DNA from: Candidatus Woesearchaeota archaeon
GTDB taxonomy: Archaea > Nanobdellota > Nanobdellia > Woesearchaeales > GW2011-AR9
Direction: 5' to 3'
DNA: 45,668 nucleotides
Assembly (NCBI GenBank): GCA_016214025.1
Contig: JACRPH010000006.1
Coordinates: forward strand, 1-45,668
Part shown: positions 1,822 through 34,293 of the stretch, in pieces
How the letters are laid out: every line of letters begins with the position of its first letter
Position numbering within the stretch: position 1 is the stretch's first letter
Position numbers and translations under genes: made by a program
The notes under the pieces: model-generated
Seen by the model: only the letters and a program-made list of their open reading frames with translations
What the model was told of the DNA's origin: nothing
The model's database searches: none

Positions 1822-1985
1822 TTATATATTTTTCGTTTTCGACGACAAACAGTAAAAAAATATTTTAAGTTCCACCAGAAATAAGGGCTAATATTTGGTT
1901 AATTTCAGAATACCCCATCACGGAGCTTTAAATCAGACCCTTTTCTCCCAAAAGTTTATAAGCCAGCGTTTACTTTAGAGGCACT

Positions 1986-2294
1986 ATGGGAATTTTATTC
2001 AAGACTTACAACAGCCAGCACCAGCTGCATGTGTGCCGGGAAGTATGGCAGGTGGAAAATAAAGTACAATTAGAAGAGGCCCTAAGCATATTTCCCAAGA
2101 AGGAAGTAGCTAAAGCTAAGATAACCCCCACCGAAAAAGCCATTGAAATTGAGCTAAACACTTTAATCGTTCCTTGCCGGGACTTGGATGACTTAAAGAA
2201 AAAGTTTGGAATTCTGGCTGATTTGAAGATGAAATATCAGAAATTAGTTCCGCAGGTGCCGGCACAAAAGCCGAAGCCCGAGCAGAAGAAGTAA
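1986..2294 (+). CDS. Hypothetical protein
   Basis: 102-aa ORF with upstream TTTATAA and GAGG. No recognised motif. Confidence 0.7.
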   Translation: MGILFKTYNSQHQLHVCREVWQVENKVQLEEALSIFPKKEVAKAKITPTEKAIEIELNTLIVPCRDLDDLKKKFGILADLKMKYQKLVPQVPAQKPKPEQKK

Positions 2295-2314
2295 AAACAA
2301 TAATTTTGATTTGT

Positions 2315-3202
2315 TTATCTTTTCTTTAACGCTTCTACTATCAGGGGAGTAACGTCAATTCTGTTGCTGGGATGCTCAATGCAATTTGTGGTTACCACTC
2401 CGTTAACTCCGGCTTTCCTTAGCTTATCCAGAGCATTTTCTACCAATAATCCGTGTACGCCTAAAGCATAAATATTTTTGGCGCCTTTCTTCTTCGCATC
2501 TTTAGCTGCTTCAGCAATAGTATGCCCGGTACTGATAATGTCATCCACAATTATCACATTTCTATCTTGGATTATTACCGGATGGATCATCTTAACTTCT
2601 ACATGCCGGGAGGAAAAGCGAGTTTTCTTTAGCACCGTAGCCTGGACGTTGATGTGTTTAGCAATATCTTCAGCCCATTGGAATGATTCCCAATCCGGAC
2701 CGATAATTACTTCTTTAGAGAAATGCTTCTTAATGTATTCTGCAATCAACGGATTGGCGCTAAGCTTAATCGCCGGAATCTTAAAAATCTCTTTAAGCGA
2801 TTTGTAGCGGTGCAAATGCGGGTCGATGGTTATCAACTTATCAATGGAATTGTTGAGCAGTTTAGCCATCACCCGGCTGGAAATGCATTCTCCGGCATTG
2901 AAGCGCTTATCCTGCCGCATATAGCCTAAATATGGTGCGACTAAAGTTACTTTCTTTGCGCCTAAGTCTTTGGCTGTTTCCGCCGCGAATACGACATCAA
3001 ATAACGATTGATCAGGATGCGGCTGGAATGATTGGACGAGAACTACTTCGTGTCCTTTTACATCGCAGTTGAACTTGAGGTATAAATCGCCATCGGGAAA
3101 GGAAGCGATAGTTAATGGAGAGAACTTGGCGTTAAGTTTTTTAGCTAGTTTTTGGGCTATTTGGGCGGAATTTCCGCAGGTAGTTATTATCATGTTGGGC
3201 AC
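2315..3202 (-). CDS. prs: Ribose-phosphate pyrophosphokinase (PRPP synthase)
   Basis: FPDGD, APYLGYMRQDKRF, IDPH, and PRT motif IIVDDIISTGHT. Confidence 0.95.
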   Translation of the reverse strand: MPNMIITTCGNSAQIAQKLAKKLNAKFSPLTIASFPDGDLYLKFNCDVKGHEVVLVQSFQPHPDQSLFDVVFAAETAKDLGAKKVTLVAPYLGYMRQDKRFNAGECISSRVMAKLLNNSIDKLITIDPHLHRYKSLKEIFKIPAIKLSANPLIAEYIKKHFSKEVIIGPDWESFQWAEDIAKHINVQATVLKKTRFSSRHVEVKMIHPVIIQDRNVIIVDDIISTGHTIAEAAKDAKKKGAKNIYALGVHGLLVENALDKLRKAGVNGVVTTNCIEHPSNRIDVTPLIVEALKKR

Positions 3203-3264
3203 CTCTTTTTAATGAGCAAAATAAGAAAACTTTATAAAGCCTTTGCTTATTTTCCAGAAACATA

Positions 3265-3372
3265 ATGAAACGAAGCTCACGCCGCTGGAAGAAAAAAGGC
3301 CAGATGCGCTGGAAATGGCAGCGCAAGAAGATAAAGAAAGCCAAGCGCAGAAGAAAGCTCCAGGCAACTTAA
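3265..3372 (+). CDS. rpl41e: Ribosomal protein eL41 (eS32), extended archaeal form; absent from the ORF track
   Basis: Manual translation MKRSSRRWKKKGQMRWKWQRKKIKKAKRRRKLQAT contains the MRWKW..K core. TTTATAAA lies upstream. Confidence 0.88.
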   Translation: MKRSSRRWKKKGQMRWKWQRKKIKKAKRRRKLQAT

Positions 3373-3528
3373 GTTAGTTCTTAGAATGTTTTTAGGTTAT
3401 GATTCTTTTAATTGTAACTTTTAATCTTTACCTTTTCTCTTAAATATTTTAATCCTTGCCAACATCAAAACAGTACAACTTCTCAGTTCTCAACAACCTT
3501 TAAATAGGAGTTGGATTTCGCTCAGCAG

Positions 3529-3753
3529 ATGAAGCTCAAGATTTATACTACGGAAATTTGCCCTGAATGCAAGGTAGTTAAGAGCTACTTAAAGGCGATG
3601 AATATTGACTTTGACGAAGTTTTGGTTAACACTCCTGAACTGGTAGAACACGTTATCAGCTTAACCGGTCAGCGCAGAGTTCCGGTGATCCAGACTGACA
3701 GCGATGTGATTGTTGGGTTTAATCAGGATAAGATTAAGTCATTGGCGTATTGA
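3529..3753 (+). CDS. Glutaredoxin / NrdH-like redoxin
   Basis: KIYTTEICPEC (CxxC), TGQRRVPVI, IVGFN. ATG at 3529 preferred over TTG at 3511. Confidence 0.9.
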   Translation: MKLKIYTTEICPECKVVKSYLKAMNIDFDEVLVNTPELVEHVISLTGQRRVPVIQTDSDVIVGFNQDKIKSLAY

Positions 3754-3787
3754 TTGTTTTTAGTTTCTTCTTTACCTTTTTTTATCT

Positions 3788-23691: not shown

Positions 23692-24330
23692 CTAAAATCC
23701 TCTTCCCTTTCTATCCCTTTCTCTTCTGTAATCCCATTTCCCACATTGTATAGAAGCTTCCAAAGAGCCAATAAAATCTTTGGCCGGGTCTAAAATAATT
23801 ACCTCTCCCTTTTTGTCAGTATATCTGCACCAGGCATGCGCTCCCAGCACCCATGAATTGCGGTCTACACTGACCTTACCCTCTAAATAGCCTTCTTTGA
23901 TGAATTTCTCCAGCAGAAAAGCAGCCAGTAAAGCTTGCTGCCGGCATACGCCGTATTGCCTTTCCAAAAATGCGCCTAAAGAAATCTTGTGGTCATCAAC
24001 AGCTCCTCTTTCTTCAATTATTTTTTTGGTTTCTTCCTCGGAATAGCGCAGCCGGAGCTTTACGGTGTTAAATACGGTGCCTAAGATAATAAAAGGATGA
24101 GCGGAGCTATAGTCTTCCCCAAGACATAACGCTTTTACTTCGTCATAAACCTGCCCGATTAACGGATATTTTACCGAATCAACTACAATCGCTTCCCGTT
24201 CGTGCCCTCCCAGATATACTCCTCCATCAATAGGGCTGTCTCTCTGGATTATGGGGCGGCCTTCGTAAATCTCTTGGCTTATTTTATCTTCCAGGCGGTG
24301 CAACACATATTTAGTTCTTAACCAGTTCAT
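23692..24330 (-). CDS. Transglutaminase-like / papain-fold protein
   Basis: Candidate Cys-His-Asp triad: YGVCRQQALL, GAHAW, IILDP. Confidence 0.75.
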   Translation of the reverse strand: MNWLRTKYVLHRLEDKISQEIYEGRPIIQRDSPIDGGVYLGGHEREAIVVDSVKYPLIGQVYDEVKALCLGEDYSSAHPFIILGTVFNTVKLRLRYSEEETKKIIEERGAVDDHKISLGAFLERQYGVCRQQALLAAFLLEKFIKEGYLEGKVSVDRNSWVLGAHAWCRYTDKKGEVIILDPAKDFIGSLEASIQCGKWDYRRERDRKGRGF

Positions 24331-24470
24331 AAATCCCTAGAAAAAGAGGTGATTTAAATACTTTACTACTCTAAAATAGTTCCAACCGTAAAGCTTTTAA
24401 ATAGGCCCATAGCTTAAAAATTACTTTTCCTCATTAAGTTTATTAACCACTTCTATATCCTCTTTAAATT

Positions 24471-25610
24471 ATGGCATTACATCGCGAGATAATCGTCTTG
24501 GGAGACATTGAAATGGGTGGAGGCACGCTTACTGATGATTTCATAGGCGATAACGCTCTCTCAAAATTGCTCTTAGAACTGAACCGGCGTCCGCATCCAT
24601 TAGATTTAATCTTAAATGGAGACACGTTTGACTTTCTGAAATGCCCGTATTCAAAAGGCGGGAAATTAGCTTACACCCGGCATATTACCGCAGAAGTTTC
24701 TTTGAGCAAGCTGGACTTAATGTACTCTGCGCATAAGAAAGTATTTGATGCACTAACTAAATTTATCCGTTTACCTCAGCACAACTTATTTTTTGTATTC
24801 GGGAACCATGATTTAGATTTAGTTTTTCCTCAAGTGCAAGAAAAAATTAGAAAAATATTGTGGGCAAAGTCCAACGTTCATTTCATAATTCGATATAATG
24901 CCGATGGAGTATACGTTGAGCACGGGATGCAGTATGATTACCTGAATAAAATTGATTTCCAGAAGGTGTTTTTGAAACATAAAGGAAAAGAGCTGCTTAA
25001 TCTGTCCTGGGTTTCATTTGGATTAATCGGAAAGATGCTTCCGTTGAAAGAAGAGCATCCGTTCTTAGAGAGGCTTATGGACCGTCCGCGGTTATTTACC
25101 ATAAACAAATTCCTGAGAAAGAGGATCGCGTGGAAAGTTACCGAATACTTCTTTAAGAGCATGGTATATTATCCGTGGAGATATATCACTGACCCCACTT
25201 ATGCTTTTCCCCGGGGATTATTCCGTGAATTCCTGCGCCGGATGAAACACACACATTGGGAAGTTGATACCATTGTGAGCGTGTTTAAAAGGAACAAACG
25301 CCGCAGCTTGCATAAGAATAAAATTTATGTTTTGGGGCACGTGCATCACCATTATATGGAGGAAAAAGAAGGCAGGGTAATTATTCATTCCGGAAGTTGG
25401 AGAGATGAGTATGATTTGGATAAGAATAGTCATTTAGTCCCCCGAGTGAAGAAATATGTGCAAGTCTTAATTGGAGATGGCAGATGTGAATATCAGGTTA
25501 TTTCTTATCCCCTTAAGCGAAGCAAGTTTAAGCTGGAAGATGCGCTGAAAAATGAGAAAAAGTGCTTGAAGACGGCGGCGAAGGAGGAGGGGTATGATTT
25601 GACTTTGTGA
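24471..25610 (+). CDS. Calcineurin-like metallophosphoesterase
   Basis: LGDIEMG, LNGDTFD, FGNHD, VEHG, LGHVH, SGSW. Confidence 0.88.
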   Translation: MALHREIIVLGDIEMGGGTLTDDFIGDNALSKLLLELNRRPHPLDLILNGDTFDFLKCPYSKGGKLAYTRHITAEVSLSKLDLMYSAHKKVFDALTKFIRLPQHNLFFVFGNHDLDLVFPQVQEKIRKILWAKSNVHFIIRYNADGVYVEHGMQYDYLNKIDFQKVFLKHKGKELLNLSWVSFGLIGKMLPLKEEHPFLERLMDRPRLFTINKFLRKRIAWKVTEYFFKSMVYYPWRYITDPTYAFPRGLFREFLRRMKHTHWEVDTIVSVFKRNKRRSLHKNKIYVLGHVHHHYMEEKEGRVIIHSGSWRDEYDLDKNSHLVPRVKKYVQVLIGDGRCEYQVISYPLKRSKFKLEDALKNEKKCLKTAAKEEGYDLTL

Positions 25611-25718
25611 TTTTCACCACTCCTTTACACTCAACAACCTTTAAATAGAAGTTTGGTTCTCAGCTTCATATTCTAGTTATCGGGGTGGGGGAATATCTTA
25701 GAACAAAAATTAAACCAA

Positions 25719-26219
25719 GTGAGTAACCGCTCGTCAATCAAAGACGCGGTGACGGCAGTAGCTAAGCTGGATTATACTGTGCTGAAGGAGATTTCTGCCA
25801 ATGATAATTTTGTTGATGAGGGAGCAGATGATGAAGCCAGTGAAATTGAGAAGTTAACTTCTGATGATGAGCTGGTTGATTATGCTTTACTTCATCAACA
25901 ACCCCCAGTTAATTATGCTTTGAATTTAGATTATCTTTCCGAGTTAGCTGGAGCAAGGTCTTCTTCAGTGACGTATGAAGATGATGAGAAAGAGAAGAAA
26001 GTGGAGGATGAACCAGAACCCATAATTACTGCCCAAGAGGCAGGTGAGATAATCCATCAACTCCAAGCTAATAGAATTTTTGGGGGTGGAAAGGTCGTAG
26101 ACTACAAGAAGAGGGAGTCGTTTCTTTATTATATTACTTTTAATCCAGCGATATTTAGACTACAGTGCGTTTCAAGTCAGTTTTATACCGATGACATAGA
26201 TTATTCGAGGTTTGTTTAG
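25719..26219 (+). CDS. Acidic hypothetical protein
   Basis: 166-aa ORF with GTG start and an upstream TTTAAATA promoter-like element. Confidence 0.6.
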   Translation: MSNRSSIKDAVTAVAKLDYTVLKEISANDNFVDEGADDEASEIEKLTSDDELVDYALLHQQPPVNYALNLDYLSELAGARSSSVTYEDDEKEKKVEDEPEPIITAQEAGEIIHQLQANRIFGGGKVVDYKKRESFLYYITFNPAIFRLQCVSSQFYTDDIDYSRFV

Positions 26220-26225
26220 ACTTAG

Positions 26226-26774
26226 CTAAAGGTTCTTGCTTTCTTCATGTAACTCGTTCCATAGTTGTTTTCCGGTAGCAGTTTTGAAATATTTATGATA
26301 AGTCTTAAGAAACTCAGAGAGAATATCTTTATTTAGCTGTTTTGAATAAACTCTTGCTTGCAATAAAGTATCTAACTCATCAGCTTCCCTAGCTACAATG
26401 GACTCTTTTGTCTTTTGTTCTTGGTATTCGCTGATTAAATTACTAAATTCTCGAGCAATTTTAGCGGGTAGATTTTTCATCAACTTTTCCATAGACTTTT
26501 TTTCAATTTCTTCTTTATTAACATAACTTTTGTCTGCGGGAGTGAGATCATCTATGTACGCCATAATTAAGTCATGTATAAGCAACATCTTTATTACTTT
26601 ATTAGAATCAACCTTTTCCATCTCTGATAATAGCCACCCTAGAGAAGCCGCTCCAAAAGAATGACTGGCAATGGTGTCTTTGATTCCCGATACTCCTTTC
26701 AACATCCATCCCTTTCTCTCTAAATGCTTAATCTTATTTATGGGTTCAAAGAGGTTTAATATGTCATTTTTCAT
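26226..26774 (-). CDS. HD-domain hydrolase (HDDC2/YfbR-like 5'-deoxynucleotidase family)
   Basis: KHLERKGW, DTIASHSF, LLIHDL, EADELD. Confidence 0.85.
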   Translation of the reverse strand: MKNDILNLFEPINKIKHLERKGWMLKGVSGIKDTIASHSFGAASLGWLLSEMEKVDSNKVIKMLLIHDLIMAYIDDLTPADKSYVNKEEIEKKSMEKLMKNLPAKIAREFSNLISEYQEQKTKESIVAREADELDTLLQARVYSKQLNKDILSEFLKTYHKYFKTATGKQLWNELHEESKNL

Positions 26775-27328
26775 GTTGTCTTTTTTCGGATAGATTTAAG
26801 CTCGCCCAGTATTCCCACTAGTTGTTCATCTTTGAGATATTTCTCGACGTTTTCCCAGAACTCATCTAATGACCCGCCTGCAACTTCTTCATACTCTAAT
26901 GTTTGAATTGCCATCTCTAATTTATCGATCTCTTTAAGAAATTTAGCTTCTTGTGAACGGCGATTAATGTAATCATCTATAATCACAAAGTAATCTTCTT
27001 CTGAACTTAACCCGGAGATGATCTCTTTAGCTGATTTAAGTTCTTTCTGATGTTTACTCTTCAGCTTTTCTAGATCTGATATTTTCCCGTGTTCCCACAC
27101 AAGGTCCGTCGTTATTGACTCAGCAATGTCGTGTATCAATGCCATCTTAAGCAGATAAAACCGATCTAAATCTCTTCCCTCAGAGAGAGTCATAGCCATT
27201 ACTGCGACTCTGAATGAATGTTCAGCAACGCTTTCGGGTGAGCTTATACCCTTTAATAGCCAACCTGTTCTCTTAACTTTCTTTAACTTCCCCACTTCCA
27301 ATAAAAATTTAGTTATAGGACTTATCAT
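26771..27328 (-). CDS. HD-domain hydrolase (HDDC2/YfbR-like), tandem paralogue
   Basis: LKKVKRTGW, ESVAEHSFR, MALIHDIAES, IDKLE. ATGA overlap with the next gene. Confidence 0.88.
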   Translation of the reverse strand: MISPITKFLLEVGKLKKVKRTGWLLKGISSPESVAEHSFRVAVMAMTLSEGRDLDRFYLLKMALIHDIAESITTDLVWEHGKISDLEKLKSKHQKELKSAKEIISGLSSEEDYFVIIDDYINRRSQEAKFLKEIDKLEMAIQTLEYEEVAGGSLDEFWENVEKYLKDEQLVGILGELKSIRKKTT

Positions 27329-27399
27329 TTTTTCTCTTATCTTTTAGAGATTGGATTAACTCTCTTAATTTATCTTCTTTTATAGGGTATTTGGCATTT

Positions 27400-28359
27400 T
27401 CAAAATGACAAACACAGTTTAGTTATTCTTATTAGGTATTCGTGAATTACTTTCATATTCTCCAGTGCCTTTCCCACCAAGAGGTCATCATTTACACGAT
27501 GAATGTTGTCTATTCTTTCCATTATCTCTTTCTCTTCTTTAACTAATTTACTCATCTGGTTTCGATTCTTCTGGTGATGGTTGTTCATCATTTCCACGTA
27601 AATTCTCTCAGTAGTAGAGTATATTTGCTCTAAAGATTTAACCGTCTTTTTCTTCTCATCCAAGTACACCAAATCTTGGGCGATGGACTTCAAATGATGA
27701 GAAATATTTTCTAAAAAGAAGTTTATCTTAGACGTTAACACAATCTCCAAGTAATTTAACTCAAACATTTTAGCAATATTCGGGTCAGTAAGAGCTTTTT
27801 TGGTTACTTTCATTGCCAGCAGGTTAAGCTTATTTATCTGCTCATTTAAGTTGTTTATCTCCTCGTAATCCTTTGCTCTGAGCCCTTTCTGAAAGAATTT
27901 TTTAATTTCTACCAACATGGCTCTGAGGATAATATCTTCTTTCTTCAGCACCATACTTGCAGAGGTATCTTTGTAGTCAAAGAAGTTTCTAGCGATGATA
28001 TGTTGTGGAGTATGTTCAATAACATCTAACGCAATCAAGCCCTGAATAATCTCTGTTATCATTACGGATTTGTCTTTTATTTCTTTTCCAACTAATCTGA
28101 TATTTTTGAAGTCGTCAATATAGGCAGAGATTATCTCATTACGCAAGTCGTTGGTATCTTTTCCATCGATATTGATGCAGGTTTCCTCTACTTTTGGGCT
28201 TTCTTTAAGCTCTTGTGGGCTTATCAGCAGATGCCCATTAGTTCCATAACTTAGGCTTATGGTATCTCCCGCTGCAAGTTTATTTTCTCTGACCCACTCT
28301 ATAGGCAAAGAGACTACAAAAGAGGTATTCCCTGATTTTACCAGAGTTCTGAACGCCAT
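27400..28359 (-). CDS. Archaeal AbrB-PhoU type regulator (phosphate-uptake regulator family)
   Basis: N-terminal RTLVKSGNTSFVVSLPIEWV...GD, IISAYIDDF, helical PhoU-like C-terminus. Confidence 0.82.
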   Translation of the reverse strand: MAFRTLVKSGNTSFVVSLPIEWVRENKLAAGDTISLSYGTNGHLLISPQELKESPKVEETCINIDGKDTNDLRNEIISAYIDDFKNIRLVGKEIKDKSVMITEIIQGLIALDVIEHTPQHIIARNFFDYKDTSASMVLKKEDIILRAMLVEIKKFFQKGLRAKDYEEINNLNEQINKLNLLAMKVTKKALTDPNIAKMFELNYLEIVLTSKINFFLENISHHLKSIAQDLVYLDEKKKTVKSLEQIYSTTERIYVEMMNNHHQKNRNQMSKLVKEEKEIMERIDNIHRVNDDLLVGKALENMKVIHEYLIRITKLCLSF

Positions 28360-28444
28360 AATGGTTTTAGAAGTAAGTACTTTATATATTTGGTGTATAG
28401 TATGTCAATAAAGTATATATCTGGGGGGGGCTTTTTGTATTATT

Positions 28445-28789
28445 ATGCCAGTAGAAATAACGCTGGAGCTCCCTCACGCACATAGGGGTGATTTTAGAGA
28501 ATTCCTGCACCGACACCGGCGTGTGGATTCGTTCCAAGAGGTGGATGGATGTTTTATGGTGAGAGTTATTCCTCAAGATAGTCCGGAATTTCATGCGTTT
28601 GTGCGAGGAATAAAAAAAACGTTCCAGGTTAGTGTGGTTAAAGAAACTCCTCTTTGCCAGGGAACGTGCAGAAATGGAACAAACTGCTTTAATCGGGATA
28701 AATATGAGGGTTACTGCTTTCATCATCGAAAGGTTTCCGAAGGTGTGGGAGAAAGGGATATTAATCCCGCTCATCAGGTGATGGAATAA
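28445..28789 (+). CDS. Small protein with a C-terminal Cys/His zinc-finger-like motif
   Basis: CQGTCRNGTNCFNRDKYEGYCFHH (DUF5763-like spacing). First gene of the putative operon, downstream of TATA-like sequence. Confidence 0.65.
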   Translation: MPVEITLELPHAHRGDFREFLHRHRRVDSFQEVDGCFMVRVIPQDSPEFHAFVRGIKKTFQVSVVKETPLCQGTCRNGTNCFNRDKYEGYCFHHRKVSEGVGERDINPAHQVME

Positions 28790-28809
28790 AATAAGGAGGT
28801 AAAGAAAAA

Positions 28810-29016
28810 ATGGAAACACTTGACAGAAAGTTAGGTCTAACAGAAAGTGCAACAAACATAGGAGACTTAAAAACTGAACAAGCACTGGGTAGGTACGCTT
28901 ATTGGAGTACCGAGAGTAGATACGACAAATTAGGCGAAAATTATAGGGGTAGTTCATGTGGTCATTGTGGTGGCAGTTGCCATGGAGATGGTTCTTGTGG
29001 AGGAGATGGTGACTGA
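28810..29016 (+). CDS. Putative RiPP precursor peptide (Cys/Gly/Ser-rich C-terminal core)
   Basis: Strong AGGAGGT SD. 68 aa ending GSSCGHCGGSCHGDGSCGGDGD. Lies 8 nt upstream of a radical SAM ORF. Confidence 0.75.
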   Translation: METLDRKLGLTESATNIGDLKTEQALGRYAYWSTESRYDKLGENYRGSSCGHCGGSCHGDGSCGGDGD

Positions 29017-29024
29017 TTAAACAA

Positions 29025-29597
29025 ATGACTGGGAATATCTCTAAGCGTAGAAGCTTTAGTCTCCAATGGCACATTACGGCCGAATGTGACCAGAATTGTG
29101 CCCATTGTTACGTTACCGACGACAGAACATACCAGCAAGAACTAGAAAACCCCCTTACTCTTGATGGATGTACAAAAGTAATAGATAGCCATATTAAATT
29201 TGCTGGAAAACTGGGCGCAACACCAAATCTTGTGCTAACTGGTGGAGATCCGCTTCTACGCATAGAGATATTCCATTTAGCATATTGGGATTTCTTTGAG
29301 GAGACGTATGGAATTAAAGTTGATGACCTCTTTGATGAGCTCTATAAGAGTCATACCAATAGTGAACAATTCAATTTTTGGCAAATATCTGAATTGCTTC
29401 CAGAATATTATCTTAAGTTGCCCGTGTTTGCTAAATTTAAGTGGAATTTATTTGACCGGGAAACAGGATATCCCTGGATGAAAAAGATGAAAGTGATAGC
29501 AGACCCTTTATGGAAGCGTAAGCCTAGTTTTAGTACATTTATTGTTAGTTTGCATGAGAAATGTGGGTGTCCTTTAAGATTGATTAAGTTCAAGTGA
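29025..29597 (+). CDS. Radical SAM peptide-maturase-like N-terminus fused to an unrelated-looking C-terminus (truncated/chimeric)
   Basis: FSLQWHITAECDQNCAHCY (CxxxCxxC) and LTGGDPLLR. Similarity appears to stop at ~29261. Only 190 aa, with no SPASM cysteines. Confidence 0.75.
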   Translation: MTGNISKRRSFSLQWHITAECDQNCAHCYVTDDRTYQQELENPLTLDGCTKVIDSHIKFAGKLGATPNLVLTGGDPLLRIEIFHLAYWDFFEETYGIKVDDLFDELYKSHTNSEQFNFWQISELLPEYYLKLPVFAKFKWNLFDRETGYPWMKKMKVIADPLWKRKPSFSTFIVSLHEKCGCPLRLIKFK

Positions 29598-29600
29598 ATT

Positions 29601-30740
29601 CTAACAACACTTCTCTTTCTTTTCTTCTTCTGTTGGTTTGGGTGGTATTTCTATCCGAATGTGCATATGGTCGCCGTGGCTTCTGTCGGGATAAAAAGCT
29701 TTACCGTATTTCTGCCATTCTTCTTTCCCATATTTTTCTGTTACGTACTTCTTAAGCGGATAAACATACCGCTGGCTCCAGAAAATGTATTCTATCTCTG
29801 AGCTGGGAGCATCTTGCAATGACTTAACAAATCGCCAATTGGCTTCCAGAGTTTCTAGGGTGAGCATCTTCATTCCTAATCCCCTAAATCCGCTGTGGTA
29901 TTCACCTTTCTCATACCAATAATGTCCTACATCTATGTCTATTCCATAGCGGTGGCTGATGTGCGGAGGCAGTCTTCCTCCCCTTGCGCCACTTATATCA
30001 CCAACTGTAAGTACAGGGTAATTTCCGGAATAGGAATAATACACATTAGTAGCACATGCCGCCAAAGCCACGCTGTTGATTAATTCCACCGCTCCAAATT
30101 TGGCCCAATGTTTTCGGGTGCGCATATAATCCGTATCCGGCATCTCTGCCCACTTTAGATGTTTAAAGTATCGCGATTGGCTGAATGGATTGGGGACTTC
30201 AGTTGGATTTAGTGAATAGCAGATAGCAGTTTTATCTACTGCCTCTTCTACAGCTAGCTCTAATCCTGACAAATCAGGAAAGCCCAACTGCGGCAGTTCT
30301 AATTTAGAAGCAAGTTCATGCAGTTTGTGTTGGGTTAATAATCCTAACGTGGCTGCTTCTACCAAATCATCTGGTGCCGGTTTGCAGGCGCTGGCAGCAG
30401 CAGTTCTTTCGCCAAGCTTTACTGAAGGCTGATAATTGGTATAATAAGCAGTAACACACATACCAGTAATCATACCCATAATTGCGACGGTAGTAAAAGA
30501 AAAGGCGGTTTTTGCCCACCCTGGAGACAAAAAGGATGGAAATGAGAAAGATGTTTTGGTCTTAGGGGCTGGTGTAGGCGGTGGATCATTTTCTTTTAGT
30601 TCCATTTCCCACCAGCGATCTTCATACAATCTCTTCAACTTATCATATTCCTCTCGAATACGCATTACGATCTCACTTTTAGATATTCTTTCAGCTAGTG
30701 AGAGGGGTTCTTGTTTGTAGTTGAGGTTTATCCTAATCAT
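29601..30740 (-). CDS. Membrane-anchored MepA-like (penicillin-insensitive murein endopeptidase, LAS family) zinc peptidase
   Basis: VGDISGARGGRLPPHISHRYGIDID (H-x6-D) and HGDHMHIRI (HxH). TM helix near aa 80-100. Confidence 0.82.
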   Translation of the reverse strand: MIRINLNYKQEPLSLAERISKSEIVMRIREEYDKLKRLYEDRWWEMELKENDPPPTPAPKTKTSFSFPSFLSPGWAKTAFSFTTVAIMGMITGMCVTAYYTNYQPSVKLGERTAAASACKPAPDDLVEAATLGLLTQHKLHELASKLELPQLGFPDLSGLELAVEEAVDKTAICYSLNPTEVPNPFSQSRYFKHLKWAEMPDTDYMRTRKHWAKFGAVELINSVALAACATNVYYSYSGNYPVLTVGDISGARGGRLPPHISHRYGIDIDVGHYWYEKGEYHSGFRGLGMKMLTLETLEANWRFVKSLQDAPSSEIEYIFWSQRYVYPLKKYVTEKYGKEEWQKYGKAFYPDRSHGDHMHIRIEIPPKPTEEEKKEKCC

Positions 30741-31030
30741 CGCCCAGAAAAACTCTTTCGTGAAGAAAAAGTTCCCTAAAAATTAGTTTTTACTGTTCTT
30801 TTATAAGTTTTTTGCATTTGCGGTATATGAATGTGTTGATAAACTGGATTGAGTATAAAGCTGACACCATATTGGTTTGATTTTGTTTTTCAAGAAGCCT
30901 CACTGTTTTTATCATGTTTGAAAGAGTTGCTATAATTCCTAATGCTTCTTTAAAACTTAACGCTAGTGTAATATCTATATCCCCCACTTACTAAAAACAT
31001 ATAAAGCCTCAGTAAACAATTTTAATCAAT

Positions 31031-32649: not shown

Positions 32650-32958
32650 TCAGTGTGTGGCACGATTCAGCATGGCTATCATCTCTGGTGTTCTCTTGCC
32701 TGCAACCAGAAGATGTTTCCTGAAAGAATTTAGCTCATCAATAAAAATCTCTACTCTGTCTTTGGTATAAAATAATGCTTCATCTCCTCTTTGGGAATTT
32801 TGTTTATACACTTGTATACCCCTAAACTCTTGGGCAGTTCTCCCCGCTTCTGTTTTGATAATATTCATTAGCTCTATAAACGAATTCACTTGAGCATCAT
32901 CGATACGGCTGTAGCTCATCCAAGCCATCCGTTCTGGCTTTTTTCTTAACAATACCAT
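32650..32958 (-). CDS. Hypothetical protein
   Basis: ~102-aa ORF with a GAGGTG SD. Confidence 0.65.
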   Translation of the reverse strand: MVLLRKKPERMAWMSYSRIDDAQVNSFIELMNIIKTEAGRTAQEFRGIQVYKQNSQRGDEALFYTKDRVEIFIDELNSFRKHLLVAGKRTPEMIAMLNRATH

Positions 32959-33002
32959 TTCATCCACCTCTTTCTGTTTTGTTTAATATTGCTTAATTAA
33001 AT

Positions 33003-34293
33003 TCACATCAACCCTTTGGGCATTTTCCCGCTCATCTTCCGCATCATCTTGGAGATATCTTTCTCGCTTTTGAACATCTTGACCATCTTCTTGGCCAGGC
33101 GATACTGCTTGAGTAATTCTCGGATATCGGTAACTTTAACTCCTGAACCGGCTGAAATGCGTTCAATCCTATCCGCATTAATGAGCTCTGGCTCTTCTAA
33201 TCACTTCCAGAGCATCTTTAGGCAGTTTTAATGAGCCCATGCCCGGAATCATCTCCAGAATCTTGCCGAAGGAGCCCATCTTCTTCATGGATTTCATCTG
33301 CTGGTACAGATCTAATAAATTGAAATCTCCTTTGAGCAGTTTCTTCTCCAGGTCTTTGGCATCTTCTTCGGTAATAACTTCCCGGGCTTTTTCCAGCAGT
33401 GATTCAATATCTCCCATGCCGATTAATTTGCCCACGAATCTCTGCGGATGGAATAATTCCAGCTCATCAATCTTCTCTCCTACACCAATGAAAGTAATAG
33501 GGGCATTAGTTACTGAGCATGCAGATAAAGCTCCGCCGCCTTTAGCGGTGCCTTCTAATTTAGTTACGATGACTCCAGTTACGTTACAAGTATCGTGAAA
33601 AGCCTGGGCCTGTTTTTGCGCCGCTTGTCCGATATCAGCTGAGATAACTAACAAGCGCTCGTCAGGCTGCGCCGCTTTATTGAGCAGATTTAATTCTTCG
33701 ATAAGTTCTGATGACAACGCATCTCTTCCTGCCGTGTCAATTATCACTACATCATATTCAGAAAGCTTGGATTGGAATGAAGAGTAAATCTTTAACGGAT
33801 CTTTGCTTCCTTTAACTCCCAGAAAATCTACGCCAACAGCCTTGGCTAACTGCTCCAGCTGTTCATAGGCTGCCGGTCTCCACGTATCAGTCTGCATTAC
33901 TGCTACTTTATATCCCCTTTTGCGGTAGAACTTGGCTAATTTTCCGACACTGGTTGTTTTTCCCGATCCGAAGAGCCCCACCAGCATTATCTGTGTCGGC
34001 TTTTTCCCTACTTTGACTTCATGAGCTTCTTTCCCCAGAAAGTTGGTTAATTCTTCGTAAACGATAGTTATTAATTGCTCTCTTTTGGTTATGCCTGGAG
34101 GAGCAGATTCTTTAGCCCGCTCTTTGATTTTGGTGGTTAAGTTGAATACTAACTGGACATTGGTATCGGATTGAAGCAAGGCACGTTGAATATCTTTAAC
34201 TAATTCATTGATGAGCTTATCATCTACAAATACAGCTTTGGTTATTTTCTGCAGGGTGTTCTTCAATGATTCACCGAGTTTTTCCAGTACCAT
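33003..34293 (-). CDS. srp54: Signal recognition particle protein SRP54, frameshifted at ~33201 by an apparent deletion
   Basis: GLFGSGKTT, DTWRPAA, DTAGR, TKLEGTAKGGGALS. The M domain resumes out of frame as LEEPELINADRIERISAGSG...MPKGLM*. Confidence 0.93.

Follow-up and report, generated by a model that had tools for sequence, protein, structure and literature searches.

Relation to described peptide-maturation systems

The ACGX system, composed of a radical S-adenosylmethionine (rSAM)/SPASM protein (TIGR04340) and a peptide with ACGX repeats (TIGR04341), has been defined in silico. No paper naming the system or TIGR04340 was found in our literature search, and 'ACGX' alone led only to unrelated uses among the papers listed. 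The rSAM/SPASM maturase SbtM is reported to form a thio(seleno)oxazole by oxidizing a Cys or Sec that adjoins Gly (PMC9204691, PMC11002830); it is the sole characterized near relative, and its product is a thiooxazole, not a thioether (PMC9204691). The maturases of ranthipeptides (PapB) and sactipeptides (StsB, AlbA, SkfB) are likewise rSAM/SPASM enzymes acting on Cys-rich precursors. Here, we analyzed a stretch of archaeal DNA of 45.7 kb (the window, i.e. the whole of contig C83 of genome G000), in which three co-oriented open reading frames (ORFs) on the + strand are separated by gaps of only 20 and 8 nt. They encode a zinc-finger protein (28445-28789), a Cys-rich peptide (28810-29016), and a protein of 190 amino acids (aa) that starts like an ACGX-type enzyme (29025-29597); a previous sequence-only reading had rightly described them as tightly spaced. 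We regard this locus as very probably a decayed ACGX-like rSAM/SPASM peptide-modification cassette, of the type yielding ribosomally synthesized and post-translationally modified peptides (RiPPs).

As in the ACGX system, a small peptide with [A/S]-C-G-x-like units is encoded directly upstream of the enzyme on the same strand (peptide end at 29016, enzyme start at 29025), and the enzyme start QWH-T-x2-C-x3-C-x2-C is common to both. TIGR04340 was the top-scoring family for the window fragment (51.9 bits, residues 10-85 on model positions 2-75 of 341) as well as for the intact enzyme of a congener, G004 (325.1 bits, positions 3-340, i.e. end to end), and canonical ACGX members occur in the same set of homologs. 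The cut-off of 400 bits, however, was reached by neither, nor by two enzymes with non-ACG peptides (L025, 349 bits; L044, 369 bits), whose peptides went unrecognized. The peptide model TIGR04341 (cut-off 28 bits) also missed the window and G004 peptides, whereas a canonical pair serving as control, L075, passed both models (enzyme 567.7 bits, peptide 55.3 bits); the enzyme of L059 scored 528.8 bits. The window peptide lacks ACGX repeats; its leader carries [YF]W, and its Cys residues form a single irregular patch.

SbtM (TIGR04082) was the second-best family for the fragment (48.7 bits, ORF residues 5-84) and for the G004 enzyme (203.2 bits), both below its cut-off of 350 bits. The two best families are thus the ACGX-system and selenobiotic-family enzymes which the sequence-only reading had named. 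Features in common with SbtM are a SPASM domain with auxiliary clusters and a ribosomal peptide with Cys beside Gly; the SbtM substrates contain Gly-Cys/Sec, whereas here Cys mostly follows Ser and precedes Gly. SbtM also possesses an extra N-terminal region of ~190 residues, and the window and G004 matches start only at model position 193-199 of 516. For the ranthipeptide and sactipeptide maturases, the G004 enzyme stayed below the cut-offs for PapB (69.2 vs 340 bits), StsB (84.5 vs 625 bits), and SkfB (66 vs 300 bits), and the system here differs from them in having no fused N-terminal RiPP recognition element (RRE) domain. We thus deal with an ACGX-like variant that is catalogued in databases and chemically unsolved. 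The ranthipeptide/sactipeptide (thioether) label proposed earlier would be one obvious, unproven possibility beside a thiooxazole. Among the rSAM/SPASM peptide systems for which our literature search found no published chemistry, ACGX-like enzymes with Cys-rich peptides form one of the larger ones; they are widespread in ultra-small archaea and bacteria.

Table 1. Features of the locus, in window coordinates.
Feature	Position	Strand	Basis
Variable island relative to congener G004	26220..29600		tblastx synteny
AbrB/SpoVT (MazE-type) + PhoU-like regulator gene, divergent from zinc-finger gene	27400..28359	-	Pfam
Zinc-finger protein, 114 aa: N-terminal beta-alpha-beta-beta-alpha-beta domain and C-terminal DUF5763 zinc ribbon	28445..28789	+	Pfam, model
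Shine-Dalgarno-like AAGGAGGT	28793..28800	+	Read from sequence; GGAGG ends 10 nt before ATG at 28810
Precursor-type peptide, 68 aa: leader with RYAYW, Cys/Gly/Asp-rich tail with four Cys	28810..29016	+	Homologs upstream of G004 enzyme
Remnant of ACGX-like rSAM/SPASM maturase, codons 1-79	29025..29261	+	TIGR04340, G004 comparison
Left arm of 23-nt inverted repeat, codons 3-10 of chimeric ORF	29032..29054	+	22/23 bases complementary to 29252-29274
Right arm of inverted repeat, straddling fusion junction 29261/29262	29252..29274	+	22/23 bases complementary to left arm
Putative remnant of zincin-like (EExxH...E) protein of ~250 aa, last ~105-110 residues, fused in frame	29262..29597	+	Profile search, alignment, model

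A chimeric enzyme gene

The 190-aa ORF begins ...FSLQWHITAECDQNCAHCY and contains the CxxxCxxC motif (ECDQNCAHCY) and the sequence GGDPLLR. Its NCBIfam matches cover approximately residues 5-100; the best families end near residue 85 and none was listed past residue 100. Heme and cofactor enzyme families scored at most 34.6 bits, i.e. the N-terminus does not group with cofactor enzymes, which leaves the RiPP assignment in place. Codon by codon, identity to G004 is high through codon R79 (29259-29261) and then falls to noise, so that the cut which the sequence-only reading had placed after GGDPLLR, at ~29261, turned out to be exact. The cluster-binding motif is therefore present, but nothing of the enzyme follows codon 79, and the remnant, about a quarter of the enzyme, is devoid of the rest of the rSAM barrel and of the SPASM domain.

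Residues 80-190 were searched separately against 1.84 billion representative proteins (exhaustive HMMER search). This yielded 22 matches at E ≤ 0.001, one of which was the window's own product. The others were mostly ~240-260 aa long (a few shorter ones are probably partial) and aligned via their C-terminal ~100 residues, the best being 57% identical over positions 152-249 of 253. When this family was used in tblastn, the match in the window started at 29265; the window's piece begins right in the EExxH motif of the family (R/IEIFHLAYW, the slash marking the junction). The suspected 3′ end of another gene was thereby confirmed: searched apart, aa 1-79 belong to an ACGX-like rSAM enzyme and aa 80-190 to a zincin-like family. 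Judged by these alignments, the ORF is a chimera of the start of a maturase and the 3′ end of an unrelated protein. Altogether, of the rSAM enzyme it has lost the SPASM domain entirely and the barrel for the most part, and of the zincin fold the N-terminal two thirds. Sequence has indeed gone missing from the cluster, as had been supposed, but the cluster is not merely incomplete: the maturase itself is destroyed, and hence no product is expected at this locus. Both enzymes would be dead, and the cassette is most likely dead in this genome.

Could the cassette nevertheless work, with the peptide matured in trans or with the fusion protein having its own function? The peptide gene is intact, with a strong Shine-Dalgarno sequence and a core conserved relative to the database peptide P0145, and the fusion ORF is open and keeps both the cluster-binding Cys triad and the EIFHL helix. 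Moreover, the genome encodes a full-length paralogous rSAM/SPASM enzyme of 347 aa with a QWH...CxxxCxxC start (L001, contig C29:4737-8720; TIGR04340 157.8 bits). This paralog, however, is only ~30% identical to the G004 maturase and lies in another gene context. It is preceded by an ORF of 68 aa, not rich in Cys, and by a DegT-like aminotransferase gene, and followed by two ORFs weakly like U32-family enzymes (TrhP, UbiU), with a TehB-like gene ~2 kb further; the C29 locus is a different, uncharacterized system. Furthermore, an rSAM barrel cannot form from a 79-residue piece, the zincin piece is without its N-terminal subdomain (residues 1-150 of the model), and no other protein with the fusion architecture was found among the 1.84 billion representatives. 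We therefore see very little chance that the cassette still functions in either way.

If the cassette is dead, the locus is a clear case of inactivation by a single in-frame deletion. Automated annotation would label the chimera a short 'radical SAM protein', a warning for genome mining that N-terminal motif matches alone can flag dead clusters.

An intact counterpart and the wider enzyme family

The relatives compared comprised 41 genomes, including G000 itself. An intact counterpart of the cluster, of the kind which the earlier reading had suggested seeking, was found in G004. Its genes are, in order on the coding strand, (i) a zinc-finger gene; (ii) peptide 1; (iii) peptide 2; (iv) the rSAM/SPASM enzyme; and (v) a TehB-like methyltransferase. 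The enzyme is a 355-aa open frame, 75% identical to the window ORF over residues 6-88, and carries the Pfam domains PF04055 and SPASM (PF13186). Both peptides directly upstream are homologs of the window peptide; peptide 1 has 73 aa and the tail ...SCSSCGASCSGGSCHGDGSCGGDGE. Neither peptide matched an NCBIfam family at E ≤ 1. G004 thus displays a Cys-peptide/rSAM/methyltransferase architecture with two peptides, whereas the window has no methyltransferase gene and its enzyme and zincin genes are fused. For chemical work the intact G004 cassette is the better choice; the window copy is a poor place to study the system and matters mainly as the record of a decay event, with an unusual repeat at the junction.

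When the G004 enzyme served as query in a database search, 1250 of 4079 candidate proteins matched at E ≤ 0.001. Nanoarchaeota, Micrarchaeota, and Patescibacteria are among the sources given, and several of the proteins are annotated by JGI as 'radical SAM/SPASM domain protein of ACGX system'. From species-representative genomes, 80 related loci were fetched and scored by a scripted criterion for an upstream Cys-rich small ORF. Such an ORF was present in 63 of the 80 loci, with ACG repeats in 45 and with other Cys-rich tails in 18; among the remaining 17, three had no sequence anchor and four had <500 nt of upstream sequence. Intact homologs therefore do adjoin Cys-rich peptides, and the RiPP assignment survives this check as well. 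Such a combination, in which a Cys-core peptide with a conserved leader motif is encoded beside a SPASM enzyme in different phyla, is typical of precursor-maturase pairs.

Between G000 and G004, the parts of the cassette are more similar (enzyme start 75%, peptides 53-62% identical) than the adjacent genes (zinc-finger protein ~39-40%, regulator ~29-30%). This difference in identity fits a mobile cassette.

The precursor-type peptide

The strong Shine-Dalgarno sequence and the SCG/CGG-type tail noted from the sequence alone were both verified; the former, AAGGAGGT, lies 10 nt ahead of the peptide ATG, and the tail reads SSCGHCGGSCHGDGSCGGDGD. No Pfam or NCBIfam family matched the 68-aa peptide at E ≤ 1. 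In 20 aligned peptides from related loci, the layout runs from a leader motif through a variable linker to a Cys patch, and the Trp of the [YF]W leader motif is invariant (20/20). The core CGHCGGSCHGDGSCGGDG is common to the window peptide and P0145, at an overall identity of only 43%. Non-ACG tails resembling that of the window peptide occur elsewhere, e.g. in L025, ending ...CHGDDQCGGDGE. By its sequence, the window peptide can be placed in a second peptide type, one without ACG repeats. In its core, Cys mostly has Ser before and Gly after it.

The conserved end of the peptide, C-H-G-D-x-x-C-G-G-D-G-[DE], is rich in metal ligands, and the gene persists in the window next to no working maturase. 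Both observations would suit an unmodified Cys/His/Asp-rich metal-binding (metallothionein-like) protein that is a mere neighbor of the enzyme gene. Against this stand the homologous or analogous peptides immediately upstream of the enzyme family in 63 of 80 loci from very distant phyla, the combination of a conserved leader motif with hypervariable Cys cores, which is that of precursors and maturases, and the bona fide ACGX pairs in the same set that pass both curated models (L075). We consider a mere metal-binding protein very unlikely. As a former precursor gene, the intact peptide gene of the window would now be an orphan, its product remaining unmodified or the gene being on its way to loss.

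Reality of the junction

As the window is a contig of a metagenome-assembled genome, the junction at 29261 might be a mis-join, the genome actually having an intact maturase. Logan contigs of four groundwater-metagenome runs cross the junction with 0 differences. Two of these runs, possibly the source of this DNA, span all of 28400-30200. The other two are not flagged as source, and their contigs cover 28930-29369 (X3) and 29013-29447 (X4) with 0 differences across 29261; stretches without contig cover in X3 and X4 carry no evidential weight. The supporting runs all come from one study and half of them may be the source, which leaves some room for a mis-join. However, the two sides of the junction share no long exact word, the outer flanks on both sides are still collinear with G004, and the missing enzyme part lies on no other contig of the genome (1.43 Mb in 85 contigs, estimated 97% complete); neither was the missing zincin part found elsewhere in it. 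We dismissed mis-assembly caused by the inverted repeat at the junction (see below), since a mismatch at position 11 limits its longest exact match to 12 nt, below usual k-mer sizes. Taken together, the junction in four runs, the absence of the missing parts from the genome, and the collinear flanks show that the fusion is a real allele, and we give a mis-join hardly any credence. We conclude that the junction is a real in-frame deletion.

The zincin-like partner and a proposed history of the fusion

No Pfam family matched the core family to which residues 80-190 belong. In an alignment of 17 rows, E152, H155, and E190 are among the residues that are invariant in this family, corresponding to an EExxH motif followed by a Glu 35 residues on. 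Distant members with a true HExxH motif occur in 18 other genomes out of 400 sampled in the phylum. A full-length relative was modeled with high confidence (predicted local distance difference test (pLDDT) 90.6, predicted template modeling score (pTM) 0.90). Foldseek found nothing for this model in the PDB at E ≤ 0.001. In a VIA-align structural search against representatives, the neighbors were almost all zinc metallopeptidases. The top rows were catalytic domains of M1 aminopeptidases (Z 8.0-8.7, 162-167 residues, root-mean-square deviation 3.6-4.5), and further neighbors included thermolysin, M30, collagenases, YbeY, and Wss1. The active-site helix motif and the later Glu are common to this family and to the gluzincin metallopeptidases (M1, thermolysin), but the first His of HExxH is Glu in the core family and Z is only ~8. 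With moderate confidence, we regard the family as zincin-like. The window keeps such a protein only from the motif helix onward, its N-terminal subdomain being lost.

Metagenome loci encoding the family were retrieved with a seven-row alignment. Among the 15 loci found, 12 had at least 300 nt of upstream sequence, and in 5 of the 15 (L108, L109, L116, L118, and L119) the stop codon of an rSAM/SPASM-like ORF immediately upstream overlaps the start of the zincin-like gene; these five include two pairs of near-duplicates. For the distant HExxH members, 19 genome loci were inspected. An rSAM gene stands directly upstream in two of them, L131 and L136, in both cases with a Cys/Asp-rich small ORF ahead of it, and L135 has the order rSAM, TehB-like methyltransferase, HExxH protein. 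From these gene orders, the zincin-like protein is a plausible member of such cassettes. What the fused partner draws attention to is a rare zincin-like family that recurs beside rSAM/SPASM maturases and is thereby a candidate leader peptidase.

L131 (G120:C7, 1456-3377) and L136 (G300:C4, 1492-3422) are compact operons of other archaea of the phylum, with the order Cys/Asp-rich peptide, rSAM/SPASM enzyme, HExxH zincin-like protein. L136 additionally has a GNAT-like ORF and a second small HExxH protein. Neither rSAM enzyme scored above the cut-off of any curated family.

In an intact system, the rSAM/SPASM enzyme would recognize the peptide leader via the conserved [YF]W motif and then act on Cys of the [S/A]-C-G-x-like core by 5′-deoxyadenosyl radical chemistry. 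The product could be a thiooxazole formed by oxidation, as with SbtM, or a thioether cross-link, and a TehB-like methyltransferase and/or the zincin-like putative leader peptidase might finish it. The ancestor of the window locus may have been an operon of a peptide gene, an rSAM gene, possibly a methyltransferase gene, and a zincin gene. What the sequence shows is that an in-frame deletion joined codon 79 of the maturase to approximately codon 150 of the co-oriented zincin-like gene; the stretch removed would have measured roughly 1.3-1.9 kb. As the zincin family is often found directly behind rSAM/SPASM maturases, an ancestral operon followed by a single deletion would be the simplest history for the window.

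Several points weigh against this account. (i) The presumed ancestor, an ACGX-like rSAM gene followed by a core EExxH member, was seen in no genome examined. (ii) The intact G004 cassette ends with the methyltransferase and has no zincin gene. (iii) The rSAM enzymes upstream of core EExxH members are peptide-maturase types of other SPASM subfamilies (mycofactocin/GeoRSP-like, 137 bits; FibroRumin/PapB-like, 222 bits). (iv) The zincin-like C-terminal piece had no tblastn match in the 40 nearest relatives. (v) The zincin assignment itself draws on the motif and on middling Z-scores, with neither a Foldseek nor a Pfam match. (vi) The Cys chemistry is extrapolated from family resemblance only. (vii) A rarer intact allele may coexist with the deletion, given that contigs drop rare variants and that the four runs all stem from one study. 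Finally, (viii) the fusion ORF may not be simply neutral junk, as it is open over 190 codons and contains a highly improbable 23-bp stem.

An inverted repeat at the junction and a second broken maturase

The stem is formed by the two arms listed in Table 1. In 300 shuffles of the 5.4-kb region, none reached 23 nt (maximum 21, mean 14.6), and the stem is present in both the minimum free energy (MFE) and centroid RNA folds of 29000-29300 (z = -5.0). Both arms appear without differences in contigs of the two samples not flagged as source. At the corresponding places in the intact G004 gene, the match is limited to a core of 11 nt with one mismatch, and inverted repeats in 24 further homologs measure only 7-10 nt; an inverted repeat of the junction type was thus not found above background in intact homologs. 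Since EIFH, encoded by the right half of the second arm, is native sequence of the zincin family, it is the left half of the first arm that looks derived; this half codes for GNIS, where the G004 counterpart has TFTT.

Creation of the junction sequence by snap-back synthesis was considered unlikely, because the family-conserved EIFH is encoded in the right half of the second arm. Our best guess is that a pre-existing quasi-palindrome of ~10 nt was extended by template switching after the deletion. Alternatively, an RNA hairpin in the fusion ORF may have been selected.

A second broken maturase was observed in the same genome (L143, contig C63:14000-17770, at ~1936-3771). There, a TrmB-like regulator gene (-) is divergent from a zinc-finger paralog (2764-3108) that is 64% identical to the one in the window. 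The gene behind this paralog, of CefB-like ('Cys-every-fifth', NF038107) rSAM/SPASM type, is spread over two frames that overlap: ORF 2990-3379 corresponds to model positions 1-81, and ORF 3331-3771, which runs to the contig end, to positions 284-427 of 444. The rSAM core of this gene is missing.

One might suppose more than passive decay. The left arm of the repeat, at codons 3-7 of the dead enzyme, would then have been rewritten into a complement of sequence native to the other gene, as a natural footprint of quasi-palindrome (template-switch) mutagenesis in an archaeon, or else the repeat would be a selected RNA hairpin closing up the 5′ end of a fusion ORF that might do harm. Taken with the second coreless maturase behind a zinc-finger paralog, the repeat would suggest a lineage in which rSAM maturases are disabled again and again, whereas the zinc-finger/regulator modules and, at this locus, the precursor gene are retained. 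We think this scenario rather unlikely. If it were true, zinc-finger genes may mark preferred landing or regulatory sites for such cassettes.

The zinc-finger gene, its divergent regulator, and genome context

The zinc ribbon of the 114-aa protein has the spacing C-x3-C-x5-C-x9-C-x2-H and passed the gathering threshold of DUF5763 (PF19067; 27.3 vs 26.3 bits, residues 69-96). Its ligands C71, C75, C81, C91, and H94 are invariant in all five paralogs and orthologs. The model has low confidence (pLDDT 61.8, <50 in the zinc ribbon), and Foldseek found nothing for it in the PDB at E ≤ 0.001. A weak likeness of the modeled N-terminal domain to the RAM (effector) domains of Lrp/AsnC (Foldseek E ≥ 0.013) is only a hint. 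Full-length members of the family are confined to this genus among 301 genomes of the order; outside the genus, only partial, weak matches were detected, in 2 of 300 other genomes of the order. Word-indexed homolog searches returned two proteins for the zinc-finger protein and three for the peptide, counts that reflect the sensitivity limit of such searches and are no measure of rarity.

At each of five loci, all within one genus, a divergent regulator gene accompanies the zinc-finger gene. The partner is AbrB/PhoU-like in the window, on contig C2 of G000, in G004 (C17), and in G001 (C31), and TrmB-like on contig C63 of G000. Pfam scores of the window regulator were 27 bits for MazE_antitoxin and a weak 13.7 bits for PhoU. 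The true ortholog of the G004 zinc-finger gene (87% identical) lies on contig C2 without a peptide or enzyme gene, and in G001 the zinc-finger/regulator pair directly adjoins a cupin gene, the peptide/enzyme/methyltransferase block being absent. This block is therefore variably present 3′ of zinc-finger genes. Because the zinc-finger gene is paired with a divergent regulator and also occurs without peptide and enzyme genes, its membership of the peptide/enzyme operon is uncertain. Most likely, the gene and its AbrB/PhoU-like neighbor form a local regulator pair beside which cassettes sit and are not biosynthetic; a regulatory role of the zinc-finger protein is a guess. The locus ties these genus-specific zinc-finger/regulator modules to two different maturase families.

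The genome is that of a small-genome archaeon from groundwater, whose nearest database matches bear the label Nanoarchaeota. In tblastx comparisons, window positions 23704-25999 and 29593-30832 are collinear with G004:C1, where the two blocks are parted by only ~700 bp with a 110-aa ORF. The island between them in the window contains two HD-domain genes, the AbrB/PhoU-like regulator, the zinc-finger gene, the peptide gene, and the chimeric ORF. It is flanked by a conserved 166-aa ORF on one side and by a convergent M74-like peptidase gene on the other.

Within the island, an antisense ORF of 230 aa (28382-29074, -) overlaps the zinc-finger gene, the peptide gene, and the enzyme start; the skewed composition of the + strand genes probably accounts for it. 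Further downstream, an SRP54 homolog (33178-34293, -) has only 371 aa and covers positions 2-31 of 91 of the M-domain model. Truncation of the gene or a very divergent signal-peptide-binding (M) domain may explain this; a small ORF downstream of it (32650-32967) had no Pfam match. On contig C2 of G000, the same translated stretch of ~28 residues, …ALSFPVSCGHKKSSPSMASMRWVVPSL…, occurs twice (~64.1-64.4 kb and 66.66-66.85 kb, L144). One copy lies on each side of the block of zinc-finger, AbrB/PhoU, and pyridoxal phosphate (PLP)-enzyme genes. This arrangement suggests that the block is bordered on either side by a DNA repeat of ~90 nt or by an RNA gene.

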